Shown piece by piece: positions 10,359 through 41,407 of a stretch of 41,615 nt of DNA (position 1 is the stretch's first letter; each line of letters begins with the position of its first letter). Origin of the DNA: a virus (lineage: Duplodnaviria > Caudoviricetes); IMG/VR virus record IMGVR_UViG_3300027744_000042, positions 1 through 41,615 of that record; one strand, given 5' to 3'. The translations under genes were made by a program, and so were the position numbers. Below the pieces are notes generated by a model that saw only the letters and a program-made list of their open reading frames with translations, searched no databases and had not been told where the DNA came from.

Positions 10359-13300
10359 TCAGAACAATGTGGGTTGCTGAACCGATGCTTTAGCCAAAGC
10401 TTTTTGCATAGCTGCTCTAAGGTTTGTTCCTGGGCGAGATCCCATGTAACGTTCTGTTGCAAGAGCCTCCTCTAGTGCTGGAGTTGAGCGGATTTGTGAG
10501 GCCAGTCCGGCGCCAGGGATAGAGAGTTGCTGCGGCTGAAATTCGCGAACGGTGCGGACAGTAGGGTTAGATTTAGGCGCTTCTTTGGGTCCCTGTATCC
10601 ATTCTGAAGTTTGGCCAACCTCCTGAGGACGCGCATCTGAAGCCGAAGGTAAATCAACGGATTCGCCGCGCATAATTTGATTTATCATCTCAGCACGTTG
10701 CTTTAACAGTGCGACGCTTTTTGCGCGGGGGCTTCCTTCTGCTGGAGCTTGACGCGGCGCAGTTTGAGCCCTGGCTTGTAGTCTGCCCCCAGGGGAAGAC
10801 AAAGCTAGTTGAATTAAATTTTCATCCACTTGCTCTGGAGTTGGTCCAGCAAGCGCTCTCTTCATTGCAGCATTACTGTAAGCACCCATTCCAGGGGCCG
10901 TGTAACCACTTGGACGCTCTGTTGCTGCTTCTGTGTAAAGCAGCCCTTCAGGTGTTATGAGATCAGGGCGCTCTTTTGCCCGATTTTGACGTTCAACGGG
11001 ATCAAATGAACGTGGGTCAATCACATCAGAAGTAATTCCCTTGTAAGAACGATCTCTTTTGCCCATGAGGCGTTGCGGTTCAACTGCTGTTCCACGAACA
11101 GGTCTAACAGATTTGTTGGCGTATTGTGCAGGCAAAACATCATCTGCATGCAAAATTTCACCTGTATTTAAATCTTTGAACAACACAGGCGTTACATCAG
11201 AAATGGCACCTTCTGGCGAATATCCTAGGTCCGCCAGTGCTTCCCGGCGGCGACCAACCCCACCAACTTCACTACGGCCTACGCCGCTTCTTGCCCGCAT
11301 ATTGTAGAAATCTATTGGGTCTAAAGTTTTTTCTTCCGGCGCTGAAGTCATGCCAATTATGTCGCCAGTGGTTTGGCTAAAGACAGGTACTTGCTTGGTT
11401 CCTTCTACAATGTTCTCAGGAACAGAGAAAAGAAGTTGGCTTGCGCGCGCATCATCTAATTTATTTTGTGCTGCTATTAAATCATTATGTGCATTTTTAA
11501 GCACAGTTTGTGTTGATTTTGGTAGAGAATTAAGCTGCTCGCTTGATAACATTACGGTAGGTTTAAGTCCAAGACTTCTTAAAGCTCCATACCTTACGTT
11601 ACTTAAAACTGTTTGTTTGCCAATCAACTCATTTTCTAAAACTTGCACTTGAGTTAAGTTTTCACCTTTGCCAGAACCAACAGCACTAAAGGGTTTAAAG
11701 AAGGATTTGGTCGGGACAGTTTCGCCTCCAGGTAAAGTCGTCGTTAGCGGCAGTGCTAACTGAGATGCTGCTTTAAGTAGTTTAGGATCTTGTGTCATGT
11801 CATACAAGCCGGCTGCTTGCCTTAAAAATGTCCTGGTTTTTGCTACCCTGCTCCTTTCAACTTCTGGTAAATCTGCTGTCCTTTCCAGTTTTGTTAGCTC
11901 TTGTTCTAACGTGCCAAGCCGCTGAGTTGATTCTTGAAGCAACCTCCGATGCCAAAGTTCAGGTGTCCATGCAGCTTTGCCCCCAAGGTACCCAGCAACT
12001 TCTAGCCTTCTTGCCTCTGCTCCTTTAGTAATAAGGCGAGTGTCTTCATCGCTAATAGGGACACTGGCAAGACGCTGAACTTGCGGTTTGGCAAAAGCAC
12101 TTGTTACATCCCTGGCACCAGAAACAGCAAACTCGCCTATGTCATGTTGTTCTGTTGGTTCAAATGAGTAAGGATGTTCAATCCTGACAGTTTCTGGTTG
12201 TGTGCCGCCACCAGTACGAACCAAGCTCCTACCTCCCAGCGGGCGATAATCTACTTCTTCATGACGAACAGGTGCGCCGTAACCTGTTCTTGTAGTTAAA
12301 GTTTGGAATAAACCTGAAGCGCCTTTTGGATGTTGCGCTAAATACTCAGGACTGACTTGAGACGGTGAACCCATCCCTGGACTTGGGCGGAGGATGGCTT
12401 CAGGATCAAGTGATAAAATTTGCTCACTAAAACCGATTTGCGGTTGCGCGCCGTACTCTCCGGTGGAAGCGCCGATCGGAGCTGCACCTGTTTCTGGTTG
12501 TAGGAAATCTTTGACGCGCTCACCAATTCCAGGGAATGCTTCTTTGTAACCAGCAACACTTATCTCTGGGTTCCTGATCTCGCCAGTGACGCGATCAACT
12601 AGCGGGGCACCTACAGACGGATTAACTTCTCCGCGCAGATCAGCACGCCGAGCTGCAATTACTTCAGGAGAAGCAAATTTGGTTGCAATCTGGAAGCTTT
12701 GGGTGCCAAGATCACGCGGATCCAAGATGTCAGGTGCGTATTCCGTTTCCTGTGCAGAAATCGGCATTTTGCTCAAAACGCTTTGAATTACTTCAGCTTT
12801 GCTCCTGGGGGCAAAAGTTTGGCTTGAAGTAATTACATCACTTTCTGTGACAGGTTTAACGCCATAGGACTCAGTCGTAGGCGGAAGAGTTGCCTCAGCC
12901 GCAGAACCCGTGGGGGCACCCTTAGCTACTTGAATTTCTTGCGTTGCAACAGGGATTTGCTCCTGTTGATAACGTTGACCGGTAGTGGGCGGTGTAACGT
13001 CACCGGAGTTACGAATTACGTCAGGATCAACATTGCGGCCTCCCCCTAACCCCCCAAGAAAACCTGAAACGCGGCTACCAATATTTTGGGCGTTTTCTGA
13101 TATTGATGTTCCTGCAGTGCGGATTGCTTGCTGCGCCGCAGGATTTTGTGCTAAAGCTACGCCAGCAGCAACAGCACCTGCCGCTAGGGCTGTTTTACCG
13201 AGTGTATCAATAAAAGAACGTTGCCGACTGCGTTCTGCAACCTCTTGACCCTCTTCATTTCTAAAGTGCTCACCAGTAAGAGAGGCATCTAACGTGCCTG

Positions 13301-13801: not shown

Positions 13802-13814
13802 TAAGAGATAGTTC
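13802..13814 (+). promoter_or_regulatory. Early motif copy 1, TAAGAGATAGTTC
   Basis: Recurs six times in the early arm; about 30 nt before ATG 13844. Confidence 0.55.
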
Positions 13815-13843
13815 CGGTGGTGGTGTTCTGTTGGTTTAATCCA

Positions 13844-14050
13844 ATGACAAGCAAGTGTTACACCATGGAAGTTGAACGTTATGGCGAGTGGGTTGAATAT
13901 ACATTCATGCCACTCGATGACGGGTCGGTATGGACGAAGCCGAGCTTTGGCGCGGTAAAGACACTCCCAGCCGAAGAAGCACGGCGGCTTTGGCGAGCAT
14001 TGCTCCGTAAGGGGTGGGTTCTCCAGCCTGAACCCTGCATCAACTTTTGA
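13844..14050 (+). CDS. Early hypothetical protein
   Basis: ATG lies in the shared TTAATCCAATGACAAGCA leader; EARRLWRALLRKGW C-terminus. Confidence 0.7.
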   Translation: MTSKCYTMEVERYGEWVEYTFMPLDDGSVWTKPSFGAVKTLPAEEARRLWRALLRKGWVLQPEPCINF

Positions 14051-14054
14051 CTAC

Positions 14055-14120
14055 GGCGAAACCGGGGGCTTCGGTCCCTGGTCCGGTAGCTTGACATGCT
14101 GCCGCTGATGAGCCTGTCAG
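14055..14120 (+). ncRNA. Type II hammerhead ribozyme with loop I-3' tail pseudoknot; predicted cleavage after C14083
   Basis: GGC-GAAA-[CCGGGGGC TTCG GTCCCTGG]-TC-[CGGTAGC TTGACAT GCTGCCG]-CTGATGA-GCC-TGTCAG; all core nucleotides and three stems present. Confidence 0.93.
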
Positions 14121-14134
14121 TATTTAAACAACCG

Positions 14135-14147
14135 TAAGAGGTAGTTC
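14135..14147 (+). promoter_or_regulatory. Early motif copy 2, TAAGAGGTAGTTC
   Basis: About 30 nt before ATG 14178. Confidence 0.55.
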
Positions 14148-14177
14148 CTTGCGGTTATGTCCCACTGGGTTAATCCA

Positions 14178-14390
14178 ATGACAAGCACCATGCTGCGTGA
14201 AGCAGCGAACAATGTATATGCCCGCGATCACATTGGGGGCGCACCAATCTATGGCATCCAGCCAGGGTGGTTCGTTGAACAGTTCCTTGACTTCGTTAAA
14301 ATCTGCCCGCCAGCAGCTACCTGGTCGCAAGCTAAGGTAGAAAACACCATGGCCGCCCTTTGGGTTCTTGATCCCGAAGACCTAATCTGA
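14178..14390 (+). CDS. Early hypothetical protein
   Basis: Same 18-nt start context as 13844; followed by the GGGAGC-TTCG-GCTCCC hairpin at 14400-14415. Confidence 0.65.
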   Translation: MTSTMLREAANNVYARDHIGGAPIYGIQPGWFVEQFLDFVKICPPAATWSQAKVENTMAALWVLDPEDLI

Positions 14391-14609
14391 CCCGCACCGG
14401 GGAGCTTCGGCTCCCTATAACATACTATACCCCGCTTAACACGCCCTGTTAGCATATTACTACCGTTTTTAACGCTACAATACCCCTGTACTTCCCTTAT
14501 AATCCCTTGCAGCGCAACGGATCACGGGAGAACGGCCAGATGACTGGTCGAGATTAAATTTTTGTTCGGCAGAAACTGTGGAAAATACGCAGAATTTAAT
14601 CTGAAATCC

Positions 14610-14623
14610 TTAGAGATATTTTC
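14610..14623 (+). promoter_or_regulatory. Early motif copy 3 (variant), TTAGAGATATTTTC
   Basis: Degenerate match to the consensus. Confidence 0.4.
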
Positions 14624-14660
14624 GGGAATTTGTGTAAGTAATTAATACCTACAAGTTGAT

Positions 14661-14707
14661 GGTTGCCTCCAGGGCTAAACAGCCTTAGATGCAGTCCTCA
14701 TGACTGC
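14661..14707 (+). ncRNA. Bistable U/M/D hairpin element, copy 1
   Basis: GGTTGC..AGGGCT-AAAC-AGCCTT..GCAGTC-CTCAT-GACTGC; middle GCAGTC pairs with either flank. Confidence 0.55.
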
Positions 14708-14726
14708 TGTCCTCCGCTCTATTGAC

Positions 14727-14969
14727 ATGGCAACTTTTCTTTCCATCGAAGAAATCCCTGCTTACTTGGAAGATACGTACCTCGTTGATTCCACTGTAGC
14801 TGATCAAGCTTATGAAGCTGTTCAACTCCAGGCACAAGGCCAAGCACGGATGACAGCTATTGCCATCGGTGTAACTGCCGGTCTTGCTGTATATGCCTGG
14901 AAATCACCACTGGGTAAACAGTTGAGAACCAAGATTGCTGCTGCAATCAAACCAGCTGAATCCGTTTAA
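14727..14969 (+). CDS. Early protein with one hydrophobic helix
   Basis: AIAIGVTAGLAVYAW; alternative start at 14700 lies inside the RNA element. Confidence 0.65.
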   Translation: MATFLSIEEIPAYLEDTYLVDSTVADQAYEAVQLQAQGQARMTAIAIGVTAGLAVYAWKSPLGKQLRTKIAAAIKPAESV

Positions 14970-15006
14970 ACGGTCTGGGAGGTGTAATGCCTCCCTCAGC
15001 TATTGC
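14954..15006 (+). ncRNA. tRNA-minihelix-like three-way junction, copy 1
   Basis: AGCTGA/TCAGCT, CCGT-TTAA-ACGG, GGGAGG-TGTAATG-CCTCCC, then ATTGC. Confidence 0.6.
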
Positions 15007-15079
15007 AAGAACAGCCTTAGAGGCAGTTTTTGCTTTTGTGCCTCCAAGGGATATAGGCACCCTGCGCACGGAAACTCCC

Positions 15080-15244
15080 GTGACTTACTTCGACCTCGCA
15101 CACGCCCAGATCCTTCAGGATCGCGTTGAGCTTCTCCAAAACGTTGGAGAGGCCTACAACGAAGCTGAGCTTTCTAGCTGGGCTTGGGAAGTGTTGCTCG
15201 ACCAACACCCAGAGTTTATGCCTGAAGAGGCATGGCTCGGCTGA
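15080..15244 (+). CDS. Small acidic early protein
   Basis: GTG 15080 preferred because the upstream in-frame part (from 14987) runs through RNA structure. Confidence 0.55.
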   Translation: MTYFDLAHAQILQDRVELLQNVGEAYNEAELSSWAWEVLLDQHPEFMPEEAWLG

Positions 15245-15310
15245 TCCGTTTAGGCGGTCAGGGAGCTTCAAGGCTCCCTCAGTCATTGCCCAGTTCGCAG
15301 GAGATGGGCA
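15239..15310 (+). ncRNA. tRNA-minihelix-like three-way junction, copy 2, plus TGCCCA/TGGGCA hairpin
   Basis: GGCTGA/TCAGTC, CCGT-TTAG-GCGG, GGGAGC-TTCAAG-GCTCCC, then ATTGC; changes relative to copy 1 preserve pairing. Confidence 0.6.
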
Positions 15311-15330
15311 CCTGCACCGTTTACCCAGCT

Positions 15331-15582
15331 ATGACAGAAGCTGCTGTGTACAACAAGCTACAAGACCTCCGCCTGCTTGCCAGGAGGGATAATGGTCAAA
15401 TTGACCACCAGTTGGAAACCTTCCGGCTTGAGTTCTTTGCTGCTTTCGAGCAGTATATGGACGGCATGGAAGAGTTGAACTTGACTCCGTTCATCGTAAC
15501 GGCTGACAAGATCATTACTGGCAACAGAGATCTGTTGAGATGGCTCAAGCATGAGTTTGAGCTAGAGGCAGATTTCGGTTGA
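15331..15582 (+). CDS. Early hypothetical protein
   Basis: ATG after the RNA element. Confidence 0.6.
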   Translation: MTEAAVYNKLQDLRLLARRDNGQIDHQLETFRLEFFAAFEQYMDGMEELNLTPFIVTADKIITGNRDLLRWLKHEFELEADFG

Positions 15583-15583
15583 T

Positions 15584-15630
15584 GTTTGCACTAAGGGGCT
15601 ACGGCCCTTTTCTGCAGACTTCATGTCTGC
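15584..15630 (+). ncRNA. Bistable U/M/D hairpin element, copy 2
   Basis: GTTTGCA-CT-AAGGGGC-TACG-GCCCTTT-TC-TGCAGAC-TTCAT-GTCTGC. Confidence 0.7.
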
Positions 15631-15649
15631 TTCCTTTGTTTTTATTATC

Positions 15650-15970
15650 ATGTCACTCGGACGTGTTGTTTTTCTTAGCGCCGCCGCCATTACTGGTGCT
15701 ATTGCTTCGCTCAAGCCTGAGCAACGCAGAAAGCTTAAAGCAGCTACTGCAAAGCAACTACGCAAGCTAGCAAACAAGCTAATGGAAGAAGGAACTCCTC
15801 CTATGTGGAGTGAACCTGAAAGTGGTGACACTGACCAGATTGACTCCAGGGAAGAGGAGCTTACAGCGAAAGAAGAACTTGCAATCGAAAGACTTACAGC
15901 CGAAGAGGTAGCTTCCATTCTTACTGAGGATGAAGTACGCACCATCAACGGCTTCAAAGTCAAGAAGTAA
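15650..15970 (+). CDS. Early protein: hydrophobic N-terminus, basic middle, acidic LT-x-x-E-E repeats
   Basis: ORF track; ATG 15650 chosen outside the RNA element. Confidence 0.6.
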   Translation: MSLGRVVFLSAAAITGAIASLKPEQRRKLKAATAKQLRKLANKLMEEGTPPMWSEPESGDTDQIDSREEELTAKEELAIERLTAEEVASILTEDEVRTINGFKVKK

Positions 15971-16014
15971 CTTCTAATAAACTTCTAATTTCCTGCTAAT
16001 TAGAAGTTCTATCC

Positions 16015-16038
16015 CGTCCGGTACGACGTTAAACTGCC
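16015..16038 (+). ncRNA. H-type pseudoknot leader, copy 1
   Basis: CGTC/GACG and GGTA/TGCC stems with TTAAAC linker; identical 24-mer at 38011. Confidence 0.65.
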
Positions 16039-16065
16039 CTTAACCTGCCCTCTTGCATTAAAATC

Positions 16066-16311
16066 ATGCGTTCTACCCGTTTTGACGAATCTTTTCTTTA
16101 CCAGAAAGATCCCCGTGACGGTTGGGTTGTTACACTTCATGGCGATTTTGCCGAAATGTTCAGAGTTGATCCTGCTACTGCAAAATCAAAGTATGAACGT
16201 TATGAAGCGCCTCTTGAGTCAATCCGCGATGCTGTAAAAGAGTTGAGAAGCGAGGGATATACCCTTGTTTACAGCCTTGATCTTCAGCTTCGTGAGTTGA
16301 TTCACGCCTAA
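16066..16311 (+). CDS. Early hypothetical protein
   Basis: Bracketed by a pseudoknot and a hammerhead. Confidence 0.7.
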   Translation: MRSTRFDESFLYQKDPRDGWVVTLHGDFAEMFRVDPATAKSKYERYEAPLESIRDAVKELRSEGYTLVYSLDLQLRELIHA

Positions 16312-16378
16312 AAGCGAAACTAGAAGAGGTTTAACCGCCCCTTCTAGTCGGCCAGTTATGCTGGCCCTGATGAGCTTT
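16311..16378 (+). ncRNA. Type II hammerhead ribozyme; predicted cleavage after C16349
   Basis: AAAGC-GAAA-[CTAGAAG..CTTCTAG]-TC-[GGCCAG TTATG CTGGCC]-CTGATGA-GCTTT. Confidence 0.93.
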
Positions 16379-16405
16379 CTATCCTTTACATTCGGAGAAT
16401 TTTAA

Positions 16406-16711
16406 ATGACCATCAAAGTTGTTTACAACACTAACTATGGAGGTTTTAGTATCTCCTTTGCAGCATTAGAAAGAATGCAAAAATTAGGATTTAAAGGCGA
16501 AGCTGCTGTAAGTGAAGAATACGTAGCTCTTTATGATTGCACACGGCACGATCCAATTTTGGTGCAAGCTGTTGAAGAGCTTGGACCCAAAGCAAATGGC
16601 ATACATGCTGATTTAAAAATTGCAACAGTCTCTGGTCCTTATCGTATTGAAGAATATGATGGATCAGAAACAATTAGGGAACCAAATAGTTACAAGTGGA
16701 TCACACCATAA
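16406..16711 (+). CDS. Conserved phage hypothetical protein (YGGFS...RHDPxLV...IEEYDG type)
   Basis: SD GGAG; motif set recognised from many phages. Confidence 0.8.
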   Translation: MTIKVVYNTNYGGFSISFAALERMQKLGFKGEAAVSEEYVALYDCTRHDPILVQAVEELGPKANGIHADLKIATVSGPYRIEEYDGSETIREPNSYKWITP

Positions 16712-16747
16712 TCATAAATTTTTAATTCTCTTATCTTTTTTACAACC

Positions 16748-16981
16748 ATGAGACACATCACAAGATTGCGAATTAACCGTGGGCTAATCCTTCTTGGAAT
16801 AGTATGCGGAGTTTTGTTATCAGCTGCTGCTCAAAAGATTACTAACAGTCAAGTCGTTCGTGACTGCAAACTCGAGACATATGCCCTCATTTGGGAATCT
16901 TCTCCTGTTGGTGATCGAATTATCTGCGTTCGCAAATTGCAAATAGCAAACAAGATATTCCCTATGCCACTTAAAGACTAA
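16748..16981 (+). CDS. Small membrane-anchored protein
   Basis: GLILLGIVCGVLLSAAA; two Cys in the soluble part. Confidence 0.6.
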   Translation: MRHITRLRINRGLILLGIVCGVLLSAAAQKITNSQVVRDCKLETYALIWESSPVGDRIICVRKLQIANKIFPMPLKD

Positions 16982-16992
16982 AGAGGTAGTTT
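16979..16992 (+). promoter_or_regulatory. Early motif copy 4, TAAAGAGGTAGTTT
   Basis: Upstream of 17035. Confidence 0.45.
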
Positions 16993-17034
16993 TTGATTAA
17001 TTGTTTCATCAACTTATTCACTTGCTACTAAATC

Positions 17035-17256
17035 ATGAGTCTTTGTTACTTTCCCCCAACTTCAACAACTGTTCGTATTACTTGGTATGGAGGTGAATCA
17101 ACGCAACTTCATTACGAAGAATTGCACAAATCTTCTGATCCAGAATGCGATCAAGATTGGTTTTGCATAGAAACCAAAACACTTGGTAATGGTGTACCTA
17201 CACAAGTTAAAGAACTTTATCAAGAGATGGTTGTTTTTTACAACGATTCTCAATGA
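17035..17256 (+). CDS. Hypothetical protein
   Basis: ORF track; its stop abuts an RNA element. Confidence 0.65.
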   Translation: MSLCYFPPTSTTVRITWYGGESTQLHYEELHKSSDPECDQDWFCIETKTLGNGVPTQVKELYQEMVVFYNDSQ

Positions 17257-17257
17257 T

Positions 17258-17305
17258 GTTCTCTCTAAGGGGCTACGGCCCTTTACTGAGGACTTCATGT
17301 CCTCA
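17258..17305 (+). ncRNA. Bistable U/M/D hairpin element, copy 3
   Basis: GTTCTC-TC-TAAGGGGC-TACG-GCCCTTTA-CT-GAGGAC-TTCAT-GTCCTC; covaries with copy 2. Confidence 0.7.
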
Positions 17306-17329
17306 TTCTGTACACACCGTTTAACTACC

Positions 17330-17752
17330 ATGTCCTCTGTTAACTCTGGATCTATTGTCGGTACCATTGTGTCTGACATCACTGTCAGAAATCCTAGTGA
17401 TTCTTTGCAAGTAACACAGTTTCGTTGTGCTCCGCTTGACGCCAGGGAAGAAGATAGCGCAATCCCGCTAACTGCTTACAATGGCGTCGGAGCAAACATT
17501 CTGCAACGATATAACAAGGGTGACACCGTTGCCGTGTCTTACCGCTTACGATACAATACCTGGCAAACGCCAGAAGGTGAGCCCCGTGGCCGCATGGAGA
17601 TTGTGGCAACTGCTACAACCACTGTGCGCCTGGGGCAAATCAGCACTGCCAAGCGAGCTGCTGAGGCCGCTGGCATGCAAGAAGACACCCAACCCGTAAA
17701 GGTAGTTCACGCTGAAGTTGTTGAACCAACTTTGGCTGAAGTTCCGTTCTAA
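17330..17752 (+). CDS. ssb: Single-stranded DNA-binding protein (single OB fold)
   Basis: YNKGDTVAVSYRLRYNTWQTPEGEPRGRMEIVA; C-terminal EVPF tail. Confidence 0.85.
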   Translation: MSSVNSGSIVGTIVSDITVRNPSDSLQVTQFRCAPLDAREEDSAIPLTAYNGVGANILQRYNKGDTVAVSYRLRYNTWQTPEGEPRGRMEIVATATTTVRLGQISTAKRAAEAAGMQEDTQPVKVVHAEVVEPTLAEVPF

Positions 17753-17753
17753 C

Positions 17754-17834
17754 GGTTGCATCAAGGGGGATAGGTTCAGCATTTACATTTAAAAATGCAA
17801 ACTTATCCCTTTTCTTGCAGCCCTTACGGCTGCA
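17754..17834 (+). ncRNA. Bistable U/M/D hairpin element, copy 4 (extended inner stem)
   Basis: GGTTGCA-TC-AAGGGGGATAGGTT...AACTTATCCCTTTT-CT-TGCAGCC-CTTAC-GGCTGCA. Confidence 0.65.
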
Positions 17835-19090: not shown

Positions 19091-19103
19091 TTAGAGATAG
19101 TTC
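19091..19103 (+). promoter_or_regulatory. Early motif copy 5, TTAGAGATAGTTC
   Basis: Part of the 44-bp direct repeat. Confidence 0.5.
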
Positions 19104-19176
19104 TTTATTTACCGTCATTACAACCACATTAATGCCAAGTTTATTATGCAACCATAAGTAAACACATTTAAAACTG

Positions 19177-19518
19177 TTAACGAATTAACCCTTTGCGACG
19201 TGCGGCATCTAAAGTACCATCGCCCACCGCACCCGCATTGATGCCCAACCACGCTGCACCAACAAGCGGTAGTTTAGATCCGCCAGCTTCAATAGCGTGC
19301 ATTGCCCATTGATTAGTTATATCTTTGCCACCAAGTGCGCCAGCTCCTGGAAGATTTCCGGTTACAACTTCACTAAAAGTTTTAGCACGCCCCGCAATTT
19401 TGCCAAATAATCCAGCTTGATCACCATAACGTTGTGCTAAAGCTGATGTGTCAATAAAATTACCGCCAGTGGCAGTCTGTTGGGCTAGGTTACCAAAAGC
19501 GTCGCCTGCAAATCTCAT
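19177..19518 (-). CDS. Gly/Ala-rich late-style protein lying in the early arm
   Basis: Own TGTTAAAAT box (19540-19548) and AAGG SD; GAVGDGTL motif. Confidence 0.7.
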   Translation of the reverse strand: MRFAGDAFGNLAQQTATGGNFIDTSALAQRYGDQAGLFGKIAGRAKTFSEVVTGNLPGAGALGGKDITNQWAMHAIEAGGSKLPLVGAAWLGINAGAVGDGTLDAARRKGLIR

Positions 19519-19559
19519 GTTGTTGCCTTATTTCTTTTAATTTTAACAGAAATAAAGCA

Positions 19560-19572
19560 TTAAAGATAGTTC
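19560..19572 (+). promoter_or_regulatory. Early motif copy 6, TTAAAGATAGTTC
   Basis: About 29 nt before ATG 19601. Confidence 0.5.
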
Positions 19573-19600
19573 TTTACTTAACGTCATTACAACCACACCA

Positions 19601-38010: not shown

Positions 38011-38034
38011 CGTCCGGTACGACGTTAAACTGCC
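38011..38034 (+). ncRNA. H-type pseudoknot leader, copy 3
   Basis: Identical to 16015-16038. Confidence 0.65.
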
Positions 38035-39040: not shown

Positions 39041-39298
39041 ATGGGTGGAGCTAAAACTGATCTTAAAAAAGCACTCAAAACTTATGGCTGGGCACTAGAA
39101 CGTCACGGCACACGCCATGATTTGTACCGTAAAGCCGGTGAGTTGCTTTCAATTCCGACAGGTACAAAGATGTATTCAAGAGCTGTCATGAACATCATGC
39201 AGCAAATAAAAGGCAAAAGTAAACGTTTTAGTCTTCGTGTTCAGAACGAATTGCCTTGCTTTCAAGAGCACCCAACCGATTTACAAGGCCACGAATAA
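39041..39298 (+). CDS. HicA-like (dsRBD-fold) protein
   Basis: LKKALKTYGW..ERHGTRHDLYRK....SIP. Confidence 0.7.
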   Translation: MGGAKTDLKKALKTYGWALERHGTRHDLYRKAGELLSIPTGTKMYSRAVMNIMQQIKGKSKRFSLRVQNELPCFQEHPTDLQGHE

Positions 39299-40887: not shown

Positions 40888-41199
40888 ATGCCTAACCAGT
40901 ATTTCATTAATGACTCTGCCAACTATGCAGAAAGTTTTCAGCAGTACGTTACTAACTACAGTTCGTTAATGCGCATGGTTGAAGCAAGTTGTTTTGCTTT
41001 TCAAGAAGTTTCTGGCAAAGAGTTATTTGACATGACTGGAGATCTTATGTATTCAGCTAATGTGTTTTACAAAAAACAAAACAACATTGAAGATGAAGAC
41101 ACTTCTTTTACTACTTACGTCAACAAAAATGAATTAAAAACTATGCTTGCTGAAGTTGTTCAAGAATATTTCAACAACGCAAGTATTAAAAATGACTAA
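40888..41199 (+). CDS. Hypothetical protein
   Basis: ATG 40888. Confidence 0.6.
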   Translation: MPNQYFINDSANYAESFQQYVTNYSSLMRMVEASCFAFQEVSGKELFDMTGDLMYSANVFYKKQNNIEDEDTSFTTYVNKNELKTMLAEVVQEYFNNASIKND

Positions 41200-41407
41200 T
41201 CCTTCTTATTTTCTTGAGGTTAGTGAGGAAGGTGTTATTGTCTTTCCTGATGAACTCATGGAACGCATGAATTGGAAGGAAAATGATGAACTGTTTTTCC
41301 GTGATTTAGGTAACGGAACTTTTCACATTTCTACAGTTCCTTATGATGCAAAAGATTTAACTTCTGAAATTATTACCCCAGTGGAGAGCAATCAGGATGA
41401 GGCTTAA
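41192..41407 (+). CDS. AbrB/SpoVT-type DNA-binding protein
   Basis: GVIVFPDELMERMNWKENDELFF. Confidence 0.75.
   Translation: MTNPSYFLEVSEEGVIVFPDELMERMNWKENDELFFRDLGNGTFHISTVPYDAKDLTSEIITPVESNQDEA

Follow-up and report, generated by a model that had tools for sequence, protein, structure and literature searches.

Each of the principles considered below has a precedent, namely the RNase III sites of phage T7, the t-elements of mitochondria, the ribozymes beside phage tRNAs and the exonuclease-resistant RNAs (xrRNAs) of viruses. The early polycistron of T7 is processed by host RNase III, and its intergenic hairpins are taken here to be the sites of this enzyme. The t-elements of plant mitochondria are tRNA-like T-arm folds at mRNA boundaries, for which cuts by RNase Z or RNase P that generate 5' or 3' ends have been proposed (PMC1920247). 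The theta ribozymes of gut phages, which are hepatitis delta virus (HDV)-like and lie beside real tRNAs, are small ribozymes that stand in for the host tRNA 3'-processing enzyme (PMC10879173). Coremin, a motif found in RNA viruses of eukaryotes, blocks Xrn1 (PMC10520033), and a 2021 review, in its available text, lists xrRNAs only in RNA viruses (PMC8374639). Here we describe the 41,615-nucleotide virus record IMGVR_UViG_3300027744_000042 (the window), in which the junctions between small genes from 13.8 to 17.8 kb carry five classes of structured RNA element. They form a real, conserved and apparently undescribed system of the gene junctions of S-EIV1-like phages.

After correction of the start codons, nine of the 11 junctions in this region were found to hold at least one element, in agreement with an earlier note, made from the sequence alone, which had claimed that most gaps between the small genes contain one. 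The junction 16711-16748 is free of elements and 16981-17035 holds only an unexplained motif. The inventory comprises two type II hammerheads (HH), four long hairpins with an alternative 3' arm (two-fold hairpins, BH), two anticodon-less tRNA mimics (TLS), one pseudoknot PK1 and two pseudoknots PK2. All nine elements named in the earlier note were recovered on the + strand and its four classes exist, but it had overlooked PK2 as a fifth class, at 15039-15063 and 15287-15315. Six of the nine overlap the upstream stop codon and one more begins 4 nt past it, in line with its statement that most start at or overlap this codon; likewise, the gene 16066-16311 is bracketed by PK1 on its 5' side and HH2 on its 3' side. 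The general order is stop codon, candidate cutter, candidate shield, short open leader and start codon. Mechanically called starts of open reading frames (ORFs) at 14700, 14987, 15232, 15623, 17183 and 17795 fall inside or before the RNA elements, and the true starts are likely 14727, 15080, 15331, 15650, 17330 and 17858. The folding z-scores of the elements range from -1.7 to -6.8, the weakest being that of the hairpin at 14657, whose stability was equalled by 13 of 200 shuffles. Rfam gave zero matches in the window at the gathering score, and scans of Rfam 15 by E-value over the window, S-EIV1, three related loci and 20 bacterial loci returned no family over BH, TLS, PK1 or PK2; in the window they gave only the sub-threshold hammerheads.

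A neighbouring gene served to collect 13 related loci, and motif scans supplied further ones. The PK1 scan yielded about 1200 viral stretches (136 loci returned) and about 140 in bacterial and archaeal genomes (127 returned), the PK2 scan about 190 (123 returned), the hairpin-pattern scan 65, many of them chance matches, and the junction scan 12. Of the 13 related loci searched with covariance models in addition to the window, 11 gave the hairpin and 12 the mimic+PK2 cassette; several of these loci had supplied training sequences, and the strong matches of both models are all on the coding strand. The relatives keep a zoned order, with mimic+PK2 first, then hairpins, then PK1, and hammerheads interspersed. 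Up to seven PK2-bearing cassettes occur within 5 kb of one contig (L211). The cultured phage S-EIV1 has mimics, PK2, the hairpin and PK1, thus four of the five classes; no hammerhead was found by descriptor scan in its 30-kb stretch. Its cassettes lie at L001 12265-12351, 12559-12646 and 13343-13415, and PK1-type copies near 13050 and 17256. Another intergenic repeat of S-EIV1, whose ends pair and which has hairpins inside, precedes start codons (L001 14587-14637 and 15279-15348) and gave no Rfam match. The test set in advance by the earlier note, namely whether the non-hammerhead motifs covary in homologues, came out positive for every class. The structures, their covariation, the placement of the stop codons and the fixed distance to the start codons are what the sequences show.

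Table 1. Positions of the RNA elements and of motif X in the window
Element	Position	Strand	Remarks
Motif X, 12 nt	13802..13813	+	also at 14135, 15017, 19091 and 19560
HH1, type II hammerhead	14055..14119	+	predicted cut after GUC at 14083; descriptor scan, Rfam sub-threshold
BH1, two-fold hairpin	14657..14707	+	divergent copy; its TGA ends no ORF; likely next start ATG 14727
TLS1, tRNA mimic	14954..15001	+	6-bp acceptor-like stem, T-arm, small D-like hairpin with stop TAA 14967-14969, no anticodon arm
PK2a, pseudoknot	15039..15063	+	hairpin holding motif X between TLS1 and PK2a; likely start GTG 15080
TLS2, tRNA mimic	15239..15284	+	6+6 bp coaxial stems; stop TGA 15242-15244 in acceptor strand
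PK2b, pseudoknot	15287..15315	+	2 nt after TLS2; likely start ATG 15331
BH2, two-fold hairpin	15580..15630	+	begins at stop TGA 15580; likely start ATG 15650
PK1, coremin-like H-type pseudoknot	16015..16038	+	4-bp stem 1 and 4-bp stem 2; 27 nt before ATG 16066
HH2, type II hammerhead	16311..16378	+	predicted cut after GUC at 16349; overlaps stop TAA 16309-16311
BH3, two-fold hairpin	17254..17304	+	begins at stop TGA; likely SSB gene start ATG 17330
BH4, two-fold hairpin, long upper stem	17750..17834	+	stop TAA:TTA; likely start ATG 17858
PK1, second copy	38011..38034	+	outside the studied region; precedes DUF5895 gene (38057)

The mimics fold as a three-way junction of an acceptor-like stem, a small hairpin and a T-arm. 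In the window, ARAGORN reported zero tRNA genes, Rfam no tRNA match, and no cloverleaf with an anticodon arm was found. Among 146 distinct matches to the PK2 pattern, stem 2 pairs in 119; a parsed mimic lies 1-4 nt upstream in 97 of these, and several of the other 22 have a mimic bearing one mismatch. In the enlarged set, 27 PK2 matches stay unparsed; at random positions of the window, the parser succeeds in three of 400. The mimic has its natural partner in PK2. Whatever the split between them (5+7, 6+6 or 7+5), acceptor and T stems sum to 11-13 bp in 94 of the 97, and the T-loop has 7 nt with a purine-A (R57-A58) in 109 of the 112 mimics of the enlarged set. In none of these 112 is the discriminator followed by CCA. 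All 8 mimics with the canonical UUCGA loop also have a D-loop-like UGGU, which is present in one of the 104 others. An alignment of 28 mimics has 99.3% of its cells paired and 14 of 25 pairs that change on both sides. The mimics have the coaxial acceptor+T helix of about 12 bp with a T-loop that is expected of a t-element or of a mimic of RNase Z or P substrates. The mimics differ from the mitochondrial t-elements (PMC1920247) in that they belong to a bacteriophage, lack the anticodon arm and form a portable, stop-carrying cassette fused to a pseudoknot.

In 87 of 94 mimics, the first nucleotide of the upstream stop codon coincides with acceptor position +1 or lies past it, in 84 of them within 9 nt. 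A start codon follows PK2 at 13-21 nt in 112 of 139 copies, and a Shine-Dalgarno-like word is present in the leader in 62 of 127. Stem 1 of PK2 was fixed by the search pattern, so that only compensatory variants count as evidence for it, and these were seen in 20 of the 139 copies. An HDV-like reading of PK2 was ruled out, as it has no inner hairpin. Upstream of BH1, the 266-nt stretch 14390-14656 is without evident gene and variable among strains; a UUCG hairpin within it (14399-14416) resembles a degenerate T-arm.

The two-fold hairpins follow one plan, consisting of stop codon, arm A, a small internal loop, the upper hairpin, arm B and a spare arm A', which can also pair with B. The length of the upper stem is variable and its base constant. 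A covariance model whose training set included three of the four window hairpins, but not that at 17745, found exactly four on the + strand of the window (14652, 15575, 17249 and 17745). In the alignment, 96.6% of the cells are paired and 6 of 17 pairs show changes on both sides, and the covariation score was reached by none of 500 shuffles. Arm A' co-varies with arms A and B, and the TAA:TTA pairing of the stop codon in BH4 is compensatory to TGA:TCA. In a set of 52 copies, which was chosen for both pairings and in which only compensatory variants therefore count, the long fold is favoured in 50 (median about -3.8 kcal/mol). The earlier note had called these hairpins bistable; the two folds are uneven in stability, and the term would be better read as the long fold first and the short fold after a cut or the passage of a ribosome. 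An in-frame stop lies at the base of the hairpin in 42 of the 52 copies, and a start codon 18-29 nt past the 3' arm A' in 49.

The base of the upper stem matches that of the T7 early intergenic hairpins (AAGG at the start and CCUUU at the end, beside the internal loop), and, as in a T7-type site, a lower and an upper stem separated by an internal loop total about 20 bp. Unlike the T7 hairpins, those described here carry a stop codon inside the lower stem and a refoldable spare 3' arm, and are deployed next to four other element classes. They do not have the form of intrinsic terminators, as the upper hairpins are trailed by 3-4 U and not by a U tract of 6-8 nt; a terminator scan flagged only the spare-arm hairpin at 15614.

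A descriptor scan of the window found exactly two type II hammerheads, both within the studied region. They share with the described family (Rfam RF02276) the complete core (CUGANGA / GAAA / NUH), stems I-III, with stem II open, and the GUC site. The pseudoknot of HH1 joins loop I (14092-14096) to the 3' tail (14115-14119), and this pairing is altered on both sides in a relative (L218:1283); in HH2 such a pseudoknot is not obvious. Six more distinct hammerheads were found across five other contigs, at most 6 nt from a stop codon where checked (5/6), and one match (L156) was judged a false positive. In a single contig (L162), an HH1-like hammerhead stands before PK2 in the slot of the mimic, which suggests that this is a cutter slot. 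The phage copies differ from RF02276 in this exchangeability with a mimic, seen in one relative, and in scoring below the gathering score of the family. They also differ from the theta ribozymes (PMC10879173), since hammerheads and mimics lie here between protein genes.

In 93 viral PK1 copies with 8-nt loops, positions 3-5 of stem 2 are Watson-Crick in 86, 85 and 64, as compared with shuffle maxima of 61, 59 and 49. Stem 1 was fixed by the search pattern and only its compensatory variants count, and the variants found stay paired. A start codon lies 19-32 nt past PK1 in 73 of 106 copies, and a stop codon 4-12 nt before it in 60 of 110. Of 50,697 phage records, 139 have a PK1-like match, and the matches listed are mostly staphylococcal. 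In all nine phage copies that were inspected, stem 2 is preserved and stem 1 retains 3 bp or more; eight of these copies are intergenic on the coding strand. Three precede head scaffold-type genes, whereas the Vibrio phage copy has no annotated sense gene downstream. PK1 stands just before such scaffold-type genes in siphophages of staphylococcal, streptococcal and thermophilic hosts (L482 601-630, L483 601-626, L487 601-625), and one siphophage record annotates it as a putative promoter. Among all 108 genomes, RNase J was found in 62 of the 75 genomes with a pairing-competent PK1 and in 19 of the 33 with the pattern only (p=0.008, kinship uncorrected), a modest association. By BLAST with a 32-nt PK1 query, which gives weak evidence, E. 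coli genomes had no match and plasmids 14 weak ones.

The window sequence 16015-16035 shares stem 1 and the conserved spacer with the coremin motif of PMC10520033. More generally, PK1 has in common with coremin (xrRNA-C) and xrRNA-WCC the stem 1, the invariant spacer, the C-first loop and the pseudoknot register (PMC10520033, PMC10321173). It differs in occurring in DNA phages and bacterial genomes, coremin being found in eukaryotic RNA viruses, in its longer stem 2 of 4-6 Watson-Crick bp and in its location in 5' leaders; its exonuclease resistance is a prediction. According to the same two papers, coremin depends on a second hairpin and on a loop whose last base is other than C, with YGAD or YGNNAD as the loop consensus. 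Most phage PK1 loops have 8-9 nt with U at position 2. PK1 was not filed as coremin because both the loop consensus and the second hairpin fail, as detailed below; by analogy it may nevertheless work like coremin, in which case the longer stem 2 could replace the hairpin. Neither 'phage' nor any word starting with 'bacteri' occurs in the available text of PMC10520033 and PMC10321173. Motifs that do match the coremin consensus and have the second hairpin were seen, some of them in tandem, on short viral contigs that are probably RNA viruses (L016, L035, L040, L057, L128, L130, L131).

Several look-alikes were set apart from PK1. The enterobacterial tandem pseudoknots of the Rfam family STAXI gave no match, and a likeness to the pistol ribozyme was dismissed, as Rfam gave no match and no further domains follow. 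An AU-rich hairpin with a duplicated 10-mer just before PK1 (15970-16012) is not part of the system, since a related contig has 5 nt in its place. A variant with a 7-nt loop has the PK1 stem and spacer and no Watson-Crick stem 2 (L269, L276, L288, L299, L311, L312, L352); it is repeated in Sideroxydans, Methylophilaceae and related genomes without RNase J match, is followed by a conserved tail and may be a distinct RNA of mobile elements.

The 41.6-kb window is part of the genome of an S-EIV1-like cyanophage; its terminase and that of Synechococcus phage S-EIV1 share 67% identity. The window encodes a family A DNA polymerase, ThyX, SSB and a dCMP deaminase, and no RNA polymerase gene is annotated in it. 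Head and packaging genes run leftward below 13.6 kb, and the run of small genes rightward from 13.8 kb. From the likeness to S-EIV1 and the gene layout we infer a cyanobacterial host, and position and layout suggest the label 'early' for the 13.8-17.8 kb region. Cyanobacteria encode RNases J, Z, III and P (PMC10989914).

The five conserved and covarying classes would probably serve as plug-in cassettes, each providing a cut signal and a 5' shield for the downstream message. The hammerheads very probably self-cleave in vitro, which would leave a 5'-OH end on a hairpin. On a slight balance of probability, host RNase Z would cut the anticodon-less mimic on its 3' side, after the discriminator. 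The upstream mRNA would then retain its stop codon and a tRNA-shaped 3' end, so that the upstream gene would be left intact, and the downstream mRNA would begin 1-2 nt before PK2, with PK2 at the new 5' end. RNase Z prefers substrates that lack CCA. RNase III would likely cut the long hairpin near its internal loop, after which the spare 3' arm would displace the 5' arm, thereby releasing the products and giving the downstream mRNA a 5'-terminal hairpin. PK1 and PK2 could each, with chances we consider slightly below even, halt RNase J, which degrades RNA from the 5' end, shortly before it reaches the ribosome-binding region; a flaviviral xrRNA unrelated to PK1 blocks RNase J1 (PMC5760640). 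No consistent cutter lies upstream of PK1. The outcome would be stable mRNAs of one or a few genes, with levels set by the type of cassette. That a cut is followed by a shield is, in our judgement, probably the right as well as the simplest reading of a layout common to four cassette types.

A number of observations weigh against this cut-and-shield scheme. The six sequencing runs are contigs only, with best RNA shares of 0.05-0.06 and patchy RNA coverage, for which reason cleavage, segmentation and stabilisation are inferred. Both hammerheads stay well below the gathering score of RF02276 (22.5 and 21.4 bits versus 37). The upper stem of the two-fold hairpins is 7 bp in most copies, as compared with 9-13 bp in T7, although some are longer, including that of the window copy at 17750. 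The PK1 loop in the window ends in C and fails the coremin consensus, and a second hairpin follows only 20 of 106 phage-type copies versus 22 of 25 coremin-consensus copies. Thirteen of the 75 genomes with a competent PK1 gave no RNase J match; most are incomplete assemblies, but one (L243) is titled chromosome. Copies that look intact were also seen in a Vibrio phage and in a crAssphage, whose host groups are mostly not known to have RNase J. In Firmicutes loci (L337-L339), PK1 lies just 5' of type III hammerheads and would therefore stay on the upstream fragment, at odds with a role purely as 5' shield. Finally, ordinary frameshift pseudoknots failed to stall Xrn1 (PMC10321173).

PK1 could instead be a stable mini-fold of general use, marking boundaries or protecting 3' ends, its likeness to coremin being a convergence without exonuclease blocking. 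We regard this as a serious, though not the favoured, possibility; it affects a single element, and the remainder of the model could stand beside it. It is consistent with the frequent position of PK1 a few nucleotides past a stop, with the scarcity of the second hairpin and with bacterial loci of Firmicutes (L337-L339, L236, L319, L282) in which PK1 is found directly before type III hammerheads, HDV-like candidates recognized by eye and the DUF2800 RNA; several copies of PK1 with a type III hammerhead occur on one contig there. The tight spacing to the start codon, the placement before phage scaffold genes and the enrichment in RNase J-positive genomes argue against it.

The main rival to the scheme as a whole is translational control, because the stop codons are embedded in the elements and the spacing is ribosome-sized. 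The non-ribozyme elements might thus govern translation, a ribosome terminating at the embedded stop unfolding or switching the element, and the pseudoknots acting as standby or S1 sites or as blocks to re-initiation. The stops inside the mimics and at the hairpin base, the ribosome-sized distance of the folds from the start codons and the many leaders devoid of a Shine-Dalgarno-like word all fit this explanation, and coremin likewise stalls scanning ribosomes (PMC10520033, PMC10321173). It is nonetheless unlikely in our view, since the 12-bp rule, the T-loop and the co-variation of the D-loop are features read by tRNA-processing enzymes, the downstream leader is unpaired in both folds of the hairpin (in two window copies) and hammerheads occupy the same junctions.

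An acceptor+T helix of 12 bp and the elbow are determinants for RNase P as well as for RNase Z, and RNase P might cut the mimics on their 5' side, or on both sides, so that the upstream stop would be lost and the message retired, or a small tRNA-like RNA freed, possibly as a decoy. RNase P is disfavoured because the upstream stop lies inside the mimic and a cut at +1 would leave a stop-less mRNA for most genes. The position of PK2, 1-4 nt from the 3' side of the mimic and exactly where an RNase Z product would start, and the absence of CCA also make this quite improbable, even though both enzymes cut the t-elements of plant mitochondria, where ccmC and nad6 have 3' ends inside the gene (PMC1920247).

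In co-occurring strains, gene-sized skips end at element boundaries, for example from 17021 to 17254 and from 19112 to 19582, which suggests gene exchange at these boundaries and a secondary role of the elements as recombination joints, comparable to the PeSL elements of T4-type phages. That the repeats are mainly such DNA-level joints for the shuffling of small genes, as these skips and the density of PK2 cassettes in L211 might indicate, or weak terminators, given the few U that follow the upper hairpin, is very improbable, as the covariation of pseudoknot and T-loop points to selection on RNA shape and not on sequence identity, the U-tracts are merely 3-4 nt long and the strong model matches are all on the coding strand.

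Motif X matched its exact pattern five times in the window, ahead of genes, versus 0.17 matches expected, and looser copies lie near 14609 and 16980. Among the relatives it was found only in the near-identical locus L015, apart from two isolated matches, and an inverted gene, lost from one strain, lies between the copies at 19091 and 19560. The motif is strain-specific and may lie outside the system, as a candidate operator, phage promoter or nuclease site; it cannot be called a promoter because the sigma-70 scan was at chance level (27 versus 32.8 expected). Elsewhere in the window, small ORFs at 39041-39298 and 41147-41407 have weak matches to a phage 'toxin' family and a MazE/AbrB-like antitoxin fold.

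The earlier note did not recognize this combination of elements as a described system, and neither Rfam, for the non-ribozyme classes, nor the literature provided one, although motif catalogues outside Rfam (the 2015 RAGATH list and large computational phage-motif lists) may hold some of the motifs. No description of them in phages was found in the available text of the literature, including the motif-discovery papers PMC2864571 and PMC5737381. In its widest form, which we advance tentatively and with less than even confidence, our proposal is that S-EIV1-like cyanophages use a protein-free, modular mRNA punctuation code with interchangeable cutters (tRNA mimics, RNase III hairpins and ribozymes). 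Its two pseudoknot families would be the first natural exonuclease-resistant RNAs of bacteria, and one of them, distributed over phages of many phyla, would have its fold and its core sequence in common with coremin from plant RNA viruses. The four uncatalogued families of structured RNA, of 25-90 nt, are cheap to test in vitro, and the cultured S-EIV1 and its host Synechococcus sp. PCCC-A2c provide a phage-host pair that covers four of the five classes. Operons of cyanobacteria and Gram-positive hosts could be tuned with such short, portable parts for cutting and shielding. If the proposal is true, tRNA punctuation, known from mitochondria, would extend to bacteriophage mRNAs, exonuclease-resistant folds, known from eukaryotic viruses, would extend to bacteria, and the intergenic hammerheads of phages would have a concrete job. 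The elements would also be natural substrates for the cyanobacterial RNase J, the role of which was called unknown in a 2022 review (PMC10989914).

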